Shown: positions 14,759-22,175 of the stretch, piece by piece | Numbering within the stretch: the stretch's first letter is position 1 | Layout: each line of letters opens with the position of its first letter | Assembly (NCBI GenBank): GCA_048938895.1 | Contig: JBHLLU010000031.1 | Coordinates: 1 to 48,613, forward strand | Direction of reading: 5' to 3' | From: Promethearchaeota archaeon | GTDB taxonomy: Archaea > Asgardarchaeota > Lokiarchaeia > Sigyniarchaeales > SOKP01 | Length of the DNA: 48,613 bases | Made by a program: the position numbers and the translations under genes | The notes under the pieces: model-generated | The model's database searches: none | Seen by the model: the letters and a program-made list of their open reading frames with translations, nothing else | What the model was told of the DNA's origin: nothing

Positions 14759-16588
14759 TTAAAAGTTAAATTTCTGCTTTTGGATACTATTATAGATTTC
14801 TCTTGTCAACAGTTTATATTCCGAGTTTTCTGGGAGTTTGATATACAAGGGATCTTCAATAATATTAATGTCAAAACCTTCCTTTTTGAGATTTAATTTT
14901 TTAAATTTAAAGCTGTGAGTAGTTACAAGCTCTGATTTGAGTCTTAGAAAAATGGGAATCGCATAAGGTGCTAAATTTTTTTTTAATATCTCCATCAATT
15001 TTTGAAAATTGAGATTATCGATGTTTGATTCAGGTACAATTGCGGCCATTCCTGCCCTTCCATCTGTATGTGGAATTTTTACTCCATATACCGAAGACAT
15101 TGAAATTTGATCAAACACATTAAGTATTTCTTCAACTTCTGTGGTCGATACATTGTGTCCTTTCCATCGGAAGGTATCTCCTAATCGATCAACAAATTGA
15201 GCATGATTACAACCTTGATCTCGAACTAAATCTCCTGTATTAAACCATTCATCTCCTTTTCTAAAAACATTCCTGAAAATTTTTGCTTCTGTTGCTGCTT
15301 CATCTGTATATCCTGCGAACTTATTAATACCTGAATTATCACCAAGGAGTAGTCCAACTTCACCTCTTTTAACCCTTTTCATGAAACCTTTTTCATTTCT
15401 TACTGGTTTTTCTTCTTCTGCATCATATTCGACAATTGCATACGTTCCCGCTCCACGTCCTACAGTACAATCAAAATTTAATAAATTCATAAATCCAACA
15501 TTACCTTCAGATGAACCATAGAATTCCCCAACCAGAGGTATATCAAACCGTTCTTTAAATTCCTTCCAAATTTCTGGTCGAAGACCATTACCTATTACAA
15601 CTCTTATTGAATTATCTTTATCATTTGGTTTAGGGGGTTCATTCACTAAATAACGACAAATTTCTCCGACATAGTTGAATGCGGTTGCATTATATTTACG
15701 ACAGTCGTCCCAGAACTGACTGACACTAAATTTACGTGCTAAGGCTAAAGTACCACCACTTAATAAAATAGAAGACCATCCTGTCATAAGAGCTGTTCCA
15801 TGAAAGAACGGTAAGGGAATATACATTGTATCTTCTGGAGTAAAGTCAGCAAATAAATTTGCAAACATATAGCCAGGAATAATCACCCTTCGATGAGTAA
15901 GGCGTGCCGCTTTAGGCAAGCCTGTGGTCCCAGAAGTAAATAAATATGCCAATACATCTGTATTTAAAATTTCGGTAGTAATGGACGGATTTTCTTTTGG
16001 AAAATCTTTGACAACTGAAGGAAGGTCAATAAATCCTTCAGGAATATCCATATCACCATAATCTGGTATAAAACAGAATTTTACAGAATCAACTAAATTT
16101 AGCTCAGAACTAACTTTTTTAAAAGCATCATAACATTCCTCTCCAATAATGATGATTTTACCTGGGGTTAGATTAAGACAATGAATTAAAGGTTTCTGAC
16201 GTAAGTCAGTATTTATTAAAGAAGAAATTACTCCAATTTTGGCATTAGCTGTATATACAAGTAAAAATTCAAGACGATTTTTAATCAGAACTTCTGCTAC
16301 ATCACCTTTTTTTAACCCTAATGATATGAAATAATTGGCATACTGGTTGACTAATTCATTAAATTGCTTATATGTAAGGGTAGTGTCTTCAAATTTTACT
16401 GCAAAATTGTTCGAAAATTGGTTGGCATTTTCTTCAACGAAAAAACCCCATGATCTATTTTCTGCAGGAGGATTTTGAGCAAGTTCTTGAATACGTGGGC
16501 CATACTTTAACATCCTTTCTTGGAATCTTCGACTAAATTCTTTAATATCAATAAGATTTGATTCTTTTTGTTTGGAAGTTTCTAACAT
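14759..16588 (-). CDS. Long-chain acyl-CoA synthetase, FATP/VLACS type
   Basis: YLFTSGTTGLPKAA, EFYGSSEGN, WFNTGDL and FVDRLGDTFRWKGHNVSTTEVE. Confidence 0.95.
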   Translation of the reverse strand: MLETSKQKESNLIDIKEFSRRFQERMLKYGPRIQELAQNPPAENRSWGFFVEENANQFSNNFAVKFEDTTLTYKQFNELVNQYANYFISLGLKKGDVAEVLIKNRLEFLLVYTANAKIGVISSLINTDLRQKPLIHCLNLTPGKIIIIGEECYDAFKKVSSELNLVDSVKFCFIPDYGDMDIPEGFIDLPSVVKDFPKENPSITTEILNTDVLAYLFTSGTTGLPKAARLTHRRVIIPGYMFANLFADFTPEDTMYIPLPFFHGTALMTGWSSILLSGGTLALARKFSVSQFWDDCRKYNATAFNYVGEICRYLVNEPPKPNDKDNSIRVVIGNGLRPEIWKEFKERFDIPLVGEFYGSSEGNVGFMNLLNFDCTVGRGAGTYAIVEYDAEEEKPVRNEKGFMKRVKRGEVGLLLGDNSGINKFAGYTDEAATEAKIFRNVFRKGDEWFNTGDLVRDQGCNHAQFVDRLGDTFRWKGHNVSTTEVEEILNVFDQISMSSVYGVKIPHTDGRAGMAAIVPESNIDNLNFQKLMEILKKNLAPYAIPIFLRLKSELVTTHSFKFKKLNLKKEGFDINIIEDPLYIKLPENSEYKLLTREIYNSIQKQKFNF

Positions 16589-16689
16589 AATAATCCCTTT
16601 AGTTTAAAAAATCCTCAACAAAACTAATAGACATATTAAATTTTTCCAAGTTATAAATGTTACATTTTATTTTTGTAAAAGAAAAAAAA

Positions 16690-17263
16690 TAAATTAGAAA
16701 GGAAGAATTCTTGTTGTGCTTCATGGGAATATCGAATCGAACTATTGAGGGATTTAGTATTAGAAAATAATTTAATATTAGAAATTTTAATAATAGAAAG
16801 AACAGTCTAATAAAAGAAAATATAAAAAATAGAAAATAAAAAATTATCTTATAAAACTTTGAAATAAAGGATTGTATCCGACAACAACCTTGTTAACTCT
16901 TTTTTCTTTTTTATTCATTTTTTTAACCTTTTATTTTAGTTTTAGTTAATATTAAATTAGATACTATCCTATATTTAGTTTTATCACATGGATTACATGC
17001 GAAGTTCGAATCTTAATTGAAGTATTAGAATTAGAAAAAAATGAGGAAACTTAGTTTAGATGTGGTGTCCAATCATCTAAACTAGTTCCTCTGTTTTTAT
17101 TAAATTTTTTTAACCCTCTTTTTTATTTTCTCTCCAATTTAGTGAATTCATATGGGTTCAAAAGCTTAAAAGATTATTAATTGAAGGGGAGAATTTGACT
17201 TCTCCCTCTTCTGGTTTTGGCTTGTCGGATGATTTGAATTAACGTGAGATTATTGAGGAAACC
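16690..17263 (-). ncRNA. Candidate large structured non-coding RNA or structured 3' UTR
   Basis: ORF-free region with three inverted-repeat arms (17183-17211; ~17015-17139 with an 11-bp core; ~16737-17009 with a 13-bp core) and a 9-nt complementarity between 16876-16884 and 17222-17230. Boundaries and strand are inferred. Confidence 0.5.
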
Positions 17264-17518
17264 TTAGAACAATCCTGTATTTCTGAAGTTAATGTTCCTC
17301 TTAACATCTGCTACAGGTATTCTTTCTTCTAAATACTTAGCATTGTATTTTCCTTTTTTCATTAGTTTTAACAATGCTTTTTTGATTGGTTTCTCCTCTG
17401 CTTTAATCCTCACAACTTCATATTCTTCATCTTTAGCAGGGAGTTTTTCCAATACTATTAATTCTGCAATCTTAATCGGTTCCTCCAGATCTCTTTTCTT
17501 GATGTATACCTGTACCAT
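17264..17518 (-). CDS. Small charged hypothetical protein (84 aa; the ORF track starts at GTG 17530)
   Basis: Strong SD GGAGGTG (17534-17528) lies 9 nt before ATG 17518. Lys/Glu-rich; no family recognised. Confidence 0.75.
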   Translation of the reverse strand: MVQVYIKKRDLEEPIKIAELIVLEKLPAKDEEYEVVRIKAEEKPIKKALLKLMKKGKYNAKYLEERIPVADVKRNINFRNTGLF

Positions 17519-17706
17519 TGGTTTCACCACCTCCCTATTTTTTTTTTTTGATAATCAATAAAAAATATAGATAATTACCATAATATAGTTTTTATAACCA
17601 AAGTTTCATCATAGTTACGTACTATTATGGGAGTATAGTAAAACAAATATAAAAAGCACAAAATCTTATCTTAAATTAGAGAGAATATAGTGCGAAATTA
17701 CTGAAT

Positions 17707-19885: not shown

Positions 19886-20761
19886 ATGATATACAAAGTA
19901 ATGATAATTAAAGCTAGTGGTATACTATGTTATTCTAAAACATTTTACGGAGATGATAAGATAGATGATGATTTTATTAGTGGATTTCTAACTGCTATAT
20001 TAGATATTTCTGAGAAAATAGGGGGTGGAGAAATAAGATCATTAAATTTCAGAAATTTTAATATTAACTATTCTTATGATGATGAAAAACTTTGTATTTT
20101 TATAATAATCGCGGATATTAATGATCCTGAAGAGGAGTTAAAAGAGAAAATAGGAGAATTGAAAAGTGAGTTCATGGATCAATATCGGGAAAGTTTTATA
20201 CGTTGGGATGGTAATATCTCTAAATTTGAAAAGTTTGATGAATTCACTGAACAAAATACGTATCTACCTCCTAAAATTTTACTGATCGGTGAGGATGGAG
20301 TTGGAAAAACTTCAATTCTAAATTTATTTCCTGGGGAGCTTCTAATAGAATTAGATGATGATATGAATGAAATTATACAGAAATCGGTTAAATTATCTAA
20401 TTTCAAAAGGATAAAGAAGTGTGCATTAAGAGAACTCAATGTTGAAGATATATTAAATAATCCAAAAGGATATACACAGACTTTAGAATCCGCTAATATT
20501 ATTTGTTTTGTTACTAATTCAGGTGCGTCCAATTTAAGCAGAACAAGGAACTATTTTTCCCTATTAGAATCAAAAGCGAACAAAGCAAATTTTTATGTTA
20601 TCGCAAACTTTCAAGATCTGCAAGAATTATCTTTTAACCCAGAGAAAATAGAAGAACTCTTTGGAATTAAAACATATGGCTTTTCAGCTATATTAGATAA
20701 TGCTAGAGAAGAGATATCTTCAATTTTATTTGATATGTTAAGTAAAACTATATTGGAGTAA
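19886..20761 (+). CDS. Longin-like domain fused to a small GTPase-like domain
   Basis: N-terminal II..SG...Y...F......DDDFISGFL.AI...S..IGGGEI.SL longin pattern; P-loop GEDGVGKTS; G4-like ANFQD; G5-like FSA. Confidence 0.8.
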   Translation: MIYKVMIIKASGILCYSKTFYGDDKIDDDFISGFLTAILDISEKIGGGEIRSLNFRNFNINYSYDDEKLCIFIIIADINDPEEELKEKIGELKSEFMDQYRESFIRWDGNISKFEKFDEFTEQNTYLPPKILLIGEDGVGKTSILNLFPGELLIELDDDMNEIIQKSVKLSNFKRIKKCALRELNVEDILNNPKGYTQTLESANIICFVTNSGASNLSRTRNYFSLLESKANKANFYVIANFQDLQELSFNPEKIEELFGIKTYGFSAILDNAREEISSILFDMLSKTILE

Positions 20762-21288
20762 TGTACAAACGAAAAATTATGAAATTTAATGAAGAAATTA
20801 TATTTCCTATCTACATATATCAAGACATTTTGAAGAGTATAAAGGAATTGTGCAGTCGATCAGAATCAGAAATTTTTGGATATTTAGTTGGTTCGATTCT
20901 AATATGGAAAGGCAATGTGTATATTATTATTGAGGATTCTATCTTTATTCAAGGTGCTGTTCATAGTGATAAATATTCAACTGCTCAAATAGAAGGGACT
21001 GCTGGTGAGTATCAGAAGGAGTTCCAAAAACTAAAAAAAATGAAAAAGAAAGAGAATTTGAGAATCGTAGGGTGGTGGCATTCACATCCGAATTTTGGAT
21101 GCTTCTTATCATCAACCGATTTACTAACACAAAAATCATTCTTTTATAAATCGTATCAAGTAGCGTTAGTAGTTGATCCAATCAGAAATGAATTCGAGTT
21201 TTTTGTAATCGACAATAGTATAAAAAAGGGTTATAAAGCAAGTAGTTATGCAATTATCAAAATTGATAGTTCTAAAGAAATAATTTAG
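20761..21288 (+). CDS. JAB1/MPN+ (JAMM) metalloprotease, Rpn11-like
   Basis: EIFGYLVG ... VGWWHSHPNFGCFLSSTD ... ALVVDP. Start overlaps the upstream stop (TAATG). Confidence 0.93.
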   Translation: MYKRKIMKFNEEIIFPIYIYQDILKSIKELCSRSESEIFGYLVGSILIWKGNVYIIIEDSIFIQGAVHSDKYSTAQIEGTAGEYQKEFQKLKKMKKKENLRIVGWWHSHPNFGCFLSSTDLLTQKSFFYKSYQVALVVDPIRNEFEFFVIDNSIKKGYKASSYAIIKIDSSKEII

Positions 21289-21290
21289 AA

Positions 21291-22175
21291 ATGCCAGAAA
21301 AAAATAAAAAATTGAAGGACTACACTGTATTTGGTATAGATTCTATAGATTCAGATATATTCGATCGTCAAAAAAGGATAAAAGGATGGGATCAAGGAAA
21401 AATTCAAAAATCTACTGTAATGGTTATCGGTGCCGGTGCTACCGGCAATGAGTTAGTAAAAAATTTAGTTTTAACTGGTATTGGTAAAATATACTTAATT
21501 GATTACGATTATATTAATCCTTCAAATTTAAACCGATGTATCTTGTTTAGTATCGAAAGCGCTAATCGAAAAGAGTACAAGGCGGATGTTGTGAAGGAAG
21601 CATGTGCAAATATAAGTTCTAATACAGAAATAATCTCTATTAAACAAGATTTAGATAATATTGATAAAACTCTTTATAAAAAATCGGATGTAATATGTTC
21701 TTGTGTCGATAATATTGAAGCAAGAATAGAGGCTAATAATAATGCCTTTTATTATAAAATTCCTTTTGTAGATTCTGGTATCGATGAATTTTTTGGAAGC
21801 ATTCAATCTGTATATTCTGAAGTGAAGGATGCTGCATGCCTTCAATGCAATATTACTGATATTGATTTAGATTTAATGTGGAAAAAATATTCCTGCACGG
21901 GCCAAGAAATAAATAGTGAAAACGGCGAAACTTTTGGAGTCATAGCTTCAATTATCACAACCACATCGATTATTGGCGGTTTACAATCACAAGAAGTCTT
22001 AAAATTTATATTAGGTTTAGAATATTTCAAGGAAAATAAAAAATGGAATCCTTATATCGGTCAACCCTTAATTGGTAAACAATTGAATTATAATGGGATA
22101 TTAAACCGATTTGAAATTATTGATAAATTAAAAAATCCAGATTGTTGGATATGTTCATATAAAGAAAATGTTTAA
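21291..22175 (+). CDS. Ubiquitin-activating E1-like enzyme (ThiF/UBA family)
   Basis: FDRQ, VIGAGATGNE, D.D.I..SNLNR, CVDN..AR, CLQC, candidate catalytic Cys in YSCTG, and CWIC. Confidence 0.93.
   Translation: MPEKNKKLKDYTVFGIDSIDSDIFDRQKRIKGWDQGKIQKSTVMVIGAGATGNELVKNLVLTGIGKIYLIDYDYINPSNLNRCILFSIESANRKEYKADVVKEACANISSNTEIISIKQDLDNIDKTLYKKSDVICSCVDNIEARIEANNNAFYYKIPFVDSGIDEFFGSIQSVYSEVKDAACLQCNITDIDLDLMWKKYSCTGQEINSENGETFGVIASIITTTSIIGGLQSQEVLKFILGLEYFKENKKWNPYIGQPLIGKQLNYNGILNRFEIIDKLKNPDCWICSYKENV

Follow-up and report, generated by a model that had tools for sequence, protein, structure and literature searches.

A stretch of 574 nucleotides (nt; positions 16690–17263) in the genome of a Promethearchaeota archaeon raises the question of whether it specifies one large structured RNA or a number of smaller genetic elements. 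The stretch forms part of a gap (16589–17263) between an acyl-CoA synthetase gene and p88, a gene for a small protein, and is contained in the analyzed window, i.e., 48,613 nt of contig JBHLLU010000031.1 (here designated C15), which belongs to a genome (designated G000) of 4.65 Mb in 174 contigs with a G+C content of ~30%. Homologs of the window's proteins are labelled Promethearchaeota, Hermod-, Hod-, Thor- or Lokiarchaeota in public records. An initial annotation had described the stretch as a candidate non-coding RNA (ncRNA) of ~570 nt, composed of three hairpin arms (numbered from the p88 side) and a 9-bp pseudoknot joining the loop of arm 3 to a distant segment. The evidence presented below indicates that the gap is very probably a row of independent units on the minus strand and not one RNA, these units including the 3′ flank of p88, a promoter module and a gene of just 24 codons. 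Read along the minus strand, the row would comprise the p88 3′ flank (17263->17028), with a single-stranded box, a G/C hairpin, a spacer and a long hairpin followed by a run of seven T residues (T7); a promoter/leader with an operator-like palindrome, a TATA-like element, an A-rich leader and a weak Shine-Dalgarno (SD) sequence; the 24-codon gene for a basic peptide, MNKKEKRVNKVVVGYNPLFQSFIR; the oligo-T terminators of this gene; and, finally, the promoter of the acyl-CoA synthetase gene.

The distribution of these pieces among related genomes is consistent with such an arrangement. Within its own genome, only window positions 16768–17016 possess diverged copies, one on contig C41 and two on C125, which are 72–75% identical, and the best matches in 40 relatives cover only positions 84–350 of the 574-nt query. 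In the genus, 13 of 54 genomes exhibit a match at E ≤ 1e-8, together defining 26 places, and the segment 16773–17039 recurs elsewhere in the own genome and in others without arms 1 and 2. The locus of a p88 ortholog in a second genome of the genus (G064, contig C194; 79% identical protein) has p88, box, arm 1, spacer, arm 2 and T7 in common with the window and then diverges, the module of the 24-codon gene (designated small open reading frame A, sORF A) being absent after arm 2. A metagenome contig (L123), on which p88 is 72.7% identical, displays the full order seen in the window, down to the module and an sORF A of 24 codons. The sub-stretches of the presumed single RNA are thus conserved as separate modules, and the proposal of one multi-arm molecule does not fit this pattern.

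The putative promoter/leader module was defined from an alignment of 25 modules. Its core consists, on the minus strand, of the operator-like ATTCGAACTTC, 4–6 nt and GAAGTT in that order, the module palindrome being TTCGAACTTC; a TATA-like AAACTAAATATAG follows ~8–10 nt after the palindrome, succeeded by an A-rich leader of ~45 nt, AAAGGT(T)AAAAAAA and the ATG. An SD-like GGT is located 8–10 nt upstream of the ATG across these 25 modules. Searched with a profile of the modules, the own genome yielded ten places at E ≤ 1.4e-8, each of which precedes a small gene, and the small genes in question differ from one another. A search of 154 genomes of the order for the exact pattern TTCGAAC-N15-30-AAACTAWAWAT, with the reversed pattern as control, returned 63 matches in 37 genomes, versus 12 for the control; the carriers include 27 of the 53 other genomes of the genus and seven of the 42 genomes of a second genus, and almost all matches are of one spacing, 40 nt long. 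Fixed spacing and recurrence before several genes are what would be expected of an archaeal promoter with an upstream operator. None of the motifs is over-represented in the genome when taken singly, which points to a small regulon as opposed to a general promoter consensus, and the small genes are probably under the joint control of a palindrome-binding factor. The same module also precedes a multi-copy family of proteins of 57–67 amino acids (aa; MSDIKYYDFLYTIQEISQKSH...), represented at G000:C137:29434-29637 and on C119, C23, C53 and C17, for which no Pfam match was obtained; several copies are positioned at contig ends, and the family may therefore break assemblies.

Behind the module, an ORF of 22–30 codons starts at the expected ATG in all 26 related places, its stop codon being followed by T-runs. 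The initial annotation's unusually long gap without ORFs consequently holds for long ORFs, but not for the 24-codon ORF. Coding potential was assessed among 11 members of sORF A, each of 24 codons and with at least 58% identity to the window's peptide. Differences at codon positions 1, 2 and 3 amount to 227, 221 and 424, respectively, and 15, 13 and 21 of the 23 columns at these positions are variable. The sense frame is open and the TAA stop is found at the same codon in 11/11 members, while the other two sense frames contain stops in 11/11; furthermore, in one antisense frame, itself open in 8/11, the first codon position would be the most variable, which favours the minus-strand frame. Frame, length and stop are therefore kept with an excess of third-position differences, as in protein-coding small ORFs. 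At least three further peptide types, B (...GYNPRLFNR), C (...KGLIKINxYGQNxxLRDLLK) and D (...LHPKKYxYGLKDL), occur behind the same promoter, giving at least four with type A, and the codon-position differences of subfamilies B (6/4/9) and C (35/28/45) follow the same trend in small numbers. The peptides are rich in Lys/Arg at the N-terminus and lack a long hydrophobic stretch, which argues against Sec export. The 60 nt following the sORF stop have a T fraction of 0.55–0.67 in 11/11 members, and oligo-T runs terminate transcription in archaea. From these features we infer that sORF A is a gene for a basic peptide with its own promoter, a weak SD sequence and oligo-T terminators, and that it belongs to a predicted family of small genes of 22–30 codons which share one promoter module in the genus of the window and a neighbouring genus.

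Such genes would resemble other small-ORF proteins of bacteria and archaea (fewer than 50 codons) in having their own promoter, SD-like site and terminator, in the preservation of frame and length across species, in being missed by gene callers and in being multi-copy. They would differ in that a highly conserved common promoter/operator before divergent peptides is unusual, and in that translation of the present family is a prediction. The published work found on the topic, mostly abstracts, describes no member of this family. A relationship of sORF B with 65–85-aa ‘NPRYFEE’ proteins was considered and is not claimed, as the similarity is weak (z = 3.3–4.1 versus shuffles). Just after small ORFs, a perfect palindromic hairpin, CCTCCTAGTA...TACTAGGAGG, was observed at G000:C125:55548-55575, where it is present as a single copy in the own genome, as well as at L039 (G013:C30) and L119 (G052:C3).

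The assignment of these units accounts for what had been interpreted as arm 3. The promoter/leader module contains the so-called T-rich strand of this arm together with the outer stem partner at 17003–17009; the outer stem itself (TCGAACT / AGTTCGA) equates to the operator core, with its self-complementary TTCGAA, together with another copy, inverted, close to the synthetase promoter; and the 9-mer of the apical loop corresponds to codons 12–15 (V-V-G-Y) of sORF A. The appearance of an arm 3 results from a complementarity by composition between the A-rich leader plus Lys-rich 5′ codons of the sORF and its T-rich terminator region. In an alignment of 12 homologous sORF-A units, the three arm-3 stems of the initial annotation are paired in 51.7% of cells, compared to 52.0% in shuffled alignments (332 of 500 as high), and the full minimum free energy (MFE) version in 59.2% compared to 58.4% (63 of 500 as high). 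With pairs no better kept than shuffled pairs, and with fold energies of the arm-3 part (16690–17027) at z = -1.34 (9/100 shuffles) and -1.56 (4/100), arm 3 could not be upheld as a structure. The second, inverted operator core (TCGAATCGAACT, plus strand) was noted at window positions 16733–16744, ~150 nt upstream of the synthetase start codon, and may tie the acyl-CoA synthetase gene to the same regulator.

The folding signal is concentrated in the right-hand part of the stretch, where 17028–17263 reaches z = -3.67 on the minus strand (0/200 shuffles) and -2.93 on the plus strand (1/200), whereas the arm-3 part is indistinguishable from shuffles. This right-hand part represents the p88 3′ flank. 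Its box is also present in G064, G019, G049, G002 and G048 and in the metagenome loci L122, L123, L126–L130 and L139, the portion in common between the window and the p88-ortholog locus of G064 being UCCGACAAGCC. In the arm-1 hairpin, 9/9 predicted pairs are standard in at least seven of ten sequences, the pairs being mostly invariant, and the arm-2 hairpin with T7/T8 is kept in the same G064 locus and in L123, with both-side changes at columns 208/250 and 223/236. RNAalifold retained arms 1 and 2 in 3/3 syntenic sequences, with four predicted pairs changed on both sides, and the wording ‘structured 3′ UTR’ (untranslated region) in the initial annotation suits both, as they are kept hairpins on the p88 strand. 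Given their conservation with p88, the most plausible reading is that arms 1 and 2 form a structured 3′ terminus of the p88 mRNA, its likeliest end point being the T7 after arm 2.

The layout behind p88 paralogs is comparable in several genomes: the box is followed by a GGAGGGGGA / TCCCCCTCC hairpin and then by either T-runs or an ORF of 30–32 codons plus a type-D small ORF, while most of the more distant p88 loci have T-runs directly after the stop codon. The likeness to bacterial intrinsic terminators and archaeal oligo-T ends extends to arm 2, a long hairpin directly before T7, and to the arm-1 homologs, which are G/C hairpins after the stop, several of them followed by T-runs; it does not extend to arm 1 of the window, which lacks a T-run. 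Termination in archaea is thought to need a T-run only, and the p88 hairpins may therefore serve RNA stability or processing instead. The spacer between the two hairpins has a full-length match only in G064 among the 53 other genomes of the genus and exhibits a 13-nt identity with the ORF behind the C125 paralog of p88; it is tentatively regarded as a relic of the 30–32-codon ORF. A mini-ORF of 13–15 codons at ~17140-17100 was discarded, since L123 lacks its ATG. The 30–32-codon ORF (MKKKxLERIERIKIKNDLEEHKxxINRIIK) is a second unannotated small ORF, seen behind the box and hairpin of p88 paralogs in five genomes (G000:C125:60626-60724 plus, also L060:1630-1728; G064:C261; G048:C50; G049:C6; and G002:C9), and it gave no Pfam match.

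A number of observations speak against a row of separate units and have to be weighed together with the competing explanations. The whole 574 nt hold more inverted repeats than dinucleotide shuffles do: 21 exact inverted 9-mers versus 5.9 +/- 3.7 (a number reached in 1/500 shuffles) and seven exact inverted 11-mers versus 0.6 (reached in 2/500), while a 9-mer pair with at least four G/C, such as that of the proposed pseudoknot, is present in only 24/500. In G064, a matching change is seen on both partners of this 9-bp pairing, and an RNA-RNA contact between the p88 3′ flank and the sORF mRNA therefore retains a low probability. Moreover, differing codon pairs of sORF A comprise 212 synonymous and 444 non-synonymous cases, from which it follows that the peptide evolves fast, and the antisense frame across sORF A is stop-free in 8/11 members, so that openness of the frame proves little by itself and the codon-position pattern has to carry the argument. 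The view that 16811–17039 is a small ncRNA in which the 24-codon frame is incidental could draw on this frequency of non-synonymous changes, on a promoter and leader that are better conserved than the ORF across subfamilies and on a peptide without a known domain. It is nevertheless very unlikely in our estimation, as third-position differences are twice those at the other two positions with length and stop identical throughout, the G-Y-N-P core is kept via synonymous changes (GGA/GGC, TAC/TAT and, for the last Arg, AGA/AGG/CGA), the GGT precedes the ATG at its set distance in the 25 modules, and no conserved pairing was found within 16811–17039.

A single ncRNA of ~570 nt, with three arms and a pseudoknot of the arm-3 loop with the 3′ segment, appears highly improbable, even though its stems are real. 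All five pairs are located where the initial annotation had placed them and four are exact reverse complements, i.e., arm 2 (11 bp), the arm-3 stems of 7 and 13 bp, and the 9-nt pair 16876–16884 / 17222–17230; only arm 1, with strands of 11 and 12 nt, contains one bulge. Fold energy across the entire stretch corresponds to z = -2.69 (plus strand) and -2.83 (minus strand), each reached in 1/100 shuffles, and the stretch resembles no known family: Rfam release 15 gave no match at gathering thresholds across the window, permissive filters applied to 16500–17700 gave three matches far below gathering (22.3 versus 51, 19.2 versus 70 and 18.3 versus 75 bits), and ARAGORN found no tRNA or tmRNA gene in the window, all in keeping with the initial annotation. 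A consensus scan for sigma-70 promoters and terminators flagged only arm 1, on the plus strand, and is uninformative, since the 11-nt loop of arm 2 exceeds the limit of the tool. However, about equal folding on either strand would be the expected outcome of A/T asymmetry and of inverted repeats at the DNA level. Arm 3 is no better than shuffles and its pairs are unconserved, a conserved coding ORF with its promoter makes up its loop and one of its strands, T6 and T7 runs lie inside the presumed RNA on the minus strand, and its halves are found apart in other genomes. As for the strand, the weak preference for the minus strand expressed in the initial annotation proved right. The notion of inverted repeats acting as DNA, in a miniature inverted-repeat transposable element (MITE) or a replication origin, would accommodate an A+T-rich region (19–28% G+C) with many inverted repeats that is partly repeated in the genome, yet its probability is close to negligible and both variants were rejected. 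The copies, besides their limited identity, comprise the promoter and small ORF only and lack bounding terminal inverted repeats; and the three Orc1/Cdc6 genes (Cdc6_C) are located on C5, C91 and C88, with none on C15, origin recognition boxes not having been searched for.

The 9-bp pairing merits separate consideration. One partner is located in the p88 box and the other in sORF A, two distinct modules which are non-adjacent at the G064 p88 locus, and a cis complement of the 9-mer was found neither within 700 nt upstream of the ten other sORF-A loci (best 6–7 of 9) nor within 700 nt downstream of the six other box loci. Being absent from 16/16 other loci tested, the long-range pseudoknot was not retained, which likewise counts against the ~570-nt RNA. 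A different possibility is that the p88 3′ flank is a structured 3′ UTR or a 3′-UTR-derived small RNA (sRNA), the box of which pairs with codons 12–15 of sORF A in trans, or within a read-through transcript of the window, and which would control translation or stability of the sORF-A mRNA. The box is kept behind p88 paralogs in at least seven genomes of the genus and several metagenome contigs with a stable hairpin next to it, an order resembling a seed-plus-terminator layout, and the flank folds well, as described above. Box and sORF read ATCCGACAA and TTGTCGGAT in G000 and GTCCGACAA (the ortholog box) and TTGTCGGAC in G064, both sides having changed with pairing retained, while G019, G049 and G002 allow eight Watson-Crick pairs and one G-U. 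In the G064 genome, the box is situated on C194 (L062) and the exactly complementary sORF on C139 (L032), where the change in the sORF converts a conserved Tyr to His. A box that is conserved and single-stranded, located before a stable hairpin at the mRNA end and complementary over 9–10 nt to another mRNA, is also encountered in 3′-UTR-derived sRNAs; the present case differs in that processing or an independent transcript would have to be assumed and in that the complementarity is broken in some genomes. For example, L123 keeps the box ATCCGACAA, but its sORF reads TTGTTGGTT, which creates one mismatch and one G-U without compensation; G048 has one mismatch between box and sORF; G052 has a changed box (ATCCATCAA) and an sORF without complementarity; and G061 and G069 possess sORF A with a different 3′ element. 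In addition, the conserved V-V-G-Y codons fully explain the sORF side of the 9-mer, and the G064 example is one event, noticed post hoc. We therefore consider such a contact unlikely, and a row of independent units remains the preferred reading of the gap.

If the palindrome is indeed bound by a factor that co-regulates the micro-protein genes, the proteins composed of winged helix-turn-helix (wHTH) domains and TPR repeats, one of which is encoded in the window, would be the obvious candidates for regulators of the module. The own genome encodes five wHTH-TPR paralogs. A strong module match (E ≤ 1.4e-8) lies within 1 kb of two of these, the window's gene and the first of the two on C125, and weak matches lie near the C107 gene (E = 0.0083) and the second C125 gene (E = 0.61); the C9 paralog has only a non-significant match (E = 6.4) and no p88 paralog. 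p88 or a p88 paralog stands beside the window's wHTH-TPR gene, the second C125 gene and the C107 gene, and one of the C125 regulator genes and a type-D small ORF directly diverge from each other, with the palindrome ~55 nt from the start codon of the regulator. In total, 10 of 23 sORF regions have a wHTH-TPR homolog within +/-1.5 kb. The assignment is weak, since nine close sORF-A relatives are far from any wHTH-TPR gene, several of them adjoining aldehyde:ferredoxin oxidoreductase and DUF6144 genes, and since a wHTH-TPR gene is found upstream of p88 in only 9 of the 41 metagenome loci with enough upstream sequence. The window locus is mirrored by an island at G000:C125:53245-62418, in which two wHTH-TPR genes (encoding 631 and 843 aa) are accompanied by three genes for small GTPases, by a p88 paralog and a p88 relative of 85 aa, and by small ORFs of types D and C, a decayed A-like type and a second D.

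The wHTH-TPR family numbers 1198 proteins at E ≤ 1e-10 among 8000 candidates scored, and those with a source name are mostly called ‘hypothetical’ or ‘TPR repeat protein’, with a few general regulator names (e.g., PadR or DtxR). In the predicted structure of the window's protein (predicted local distance difference test, pLDDT, 78.8), a TPR solenoid is combined with two to three winged helices. The Foldseek matches listed for this model, the best 50, are generic TPR proteins (APC/C subunits, OGT, Tom70 and MamA), with no Rap, Rgg, NprR, PlcR, PrgX or AimR among these 50, and a PDB sequence search returned TPR proteins only.

By analogy, the 22–30-codon peptides could be the cognate ligands of adjoining wHTH-TPR regulators, in an independently evolved Asgard archaeal counterpart of the RRNPP systems of Bacillota (Rgg/SHP, PlcR/PapR and AimR/AimP), although we consider this doubtful. 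As far as the summary-level descriptions of RRNPP systems go, the likeness would consist of a TPR DNA-binding protein adjoining a very short peptide gene, often divergently, of a palindrome in the common control region, and of several receptor paralogs and peptide types per genome. By contrast, the DNA-binding part here has two or three winged helices and not an XRE-type HTH, the fold matches noted above include no RRNPP receptor, the peptides are basic and devoid of a hydrophobic export segment, and adjacency is confined to the fraction of sORF regions given above. In the portion of the report available to us, the RRNPPA family is placed in Bacillota, their conjugative elements and phages (10.1101/2023.09.19.558401), and nothing on small ORFs in Asgard archaea, on this promoter or on RRNPP-like systems of archaea was present in the literature found, largely represented by abstracts. 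The box in the p88 3′ UTR might add a layer of RNA control on one of the peptides.

The features of the locus and its gene neighbours are compiled in Table 1. p88 itself gave no Pfam, NCBIfam or PADLOC match and no usable match in the ESM Atlas, and its predicted structure is poor (pLDDT 53; predicted template modelling score, pTM, 0.22). Its mechanically assigned GTG start (17530) is probably wrong, because most aligned homologs start with MVQV or MEQV, equivalent to the ATG at 17518, which would yield a protein of 84 aa; a strong SD sequence (GGAGGTGGTGA) is present upstream of this ATG. In the window, the wHTH-TPR gene is followed by a Roc-like gene, directly downstream of which (20761–22175) genes for a JAB-domain protein (175 aa) and an E1-like ThiF/MoeB adenylyltransferase (294 aa) were observed, which together look like a ubiquitin-like modifier pair.

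Table 1. Positions (window numbering), strands and supporting observations for the units of the gap and the adjoining genes.
Feature	Position	Strand	Observations
Long-chain acyl-CoA synthetase, 609 aa	14759..16588	-	ORF; Pfam AMP-binding E = 2.4e-55; NCBIfam NF006134 731.7 bits (cut-off 625)
Putative acyl-CoA synthetase promoter region	~16589-16760	-	Synthetase is the downstream neighbour
T-runs (T6, T4, T6, T4, T4)	16811..16843	-	Directly after the sORF stop; putative oligo-T terminator; ‘A-rich strand’ of arm 3
sORF A, 24 codons + TAA, unannotated	16844..16918	-	Peptide MNKKEKRVNKVVVGYNPLFQSFIR by translation; homologous ORFs
Promoter/leader module	16919..17039	-	nhmmer C15:17039-16916 E = 7.4e-20; alignment of 25 modules; putative promoter
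SD-like GGTT before ATG	16928->16925	-	Part of promoter/leader module
TATA-like AAACTAAATATAG	16981->16969	-	Part of promoter/leader module
Operator-like ATTCGAACTTC	17012->17002	-	Part of promoter/leader module
‘ACTTC’ element	within 16919..17039	-	Part of promoter/leader module
Arm 2, hairpin 17043-17091 + T7 17041->17035	17035..17091	-	Putative p88 mRNA end
Spacer between hairpins, non-coding	17100..17175	-	Conserved only in two syntenic relatives
Arm 1, G-rich/C-rich hairpin	17183..17211	-	Positional homolog of the GGAGGGGGA / TCCCCCTCC hairpin after p88-paralog stops
Conserved box, reads ...AUCAUCCGACAAGCC...	17216..17247	-	Holds second 9-mer 17222-17230; 88% identical to C125:60497-60528 behind paralog
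p88, 88-aa ORF, small protein	17264..17530	-	No family match; relatives in 49/121 genomes of the family
wHTH-wHTH-(wHTH)-TPR protein, 633 aa	17707..19608	+	Divergent from p88; Pfam HTH_34 and TPR families; AlphaFold pLDDT 78.8

With the failure of the reading as a large new structured RNA, follow-up effort directed at such a molecule is saved. What emerges in its place is a predicted and previously unannotated family of very small Asgard genes with a strongly conserved promoter/operator module, which cluster with wHTH-TPR regulators, small GTPases and other uncharacterized small proteins. Metagenome-assembled genomes are a setting in which small proteins are systematically overlooked and, to our knowledge, next to nothing is known of how genes are regulated in the archaea most closely related to eukaryotes. 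If the peptides were to act as ligands of the TPR proteins, they would constitute the first archaeal peptide-receptor pair of such a layout known to us, none having been encountered in the literature found, for the most part abstracts. The combination of a cis-element, a short list of targets and a candidate regulator amounts to a regulon that would be directly testable.

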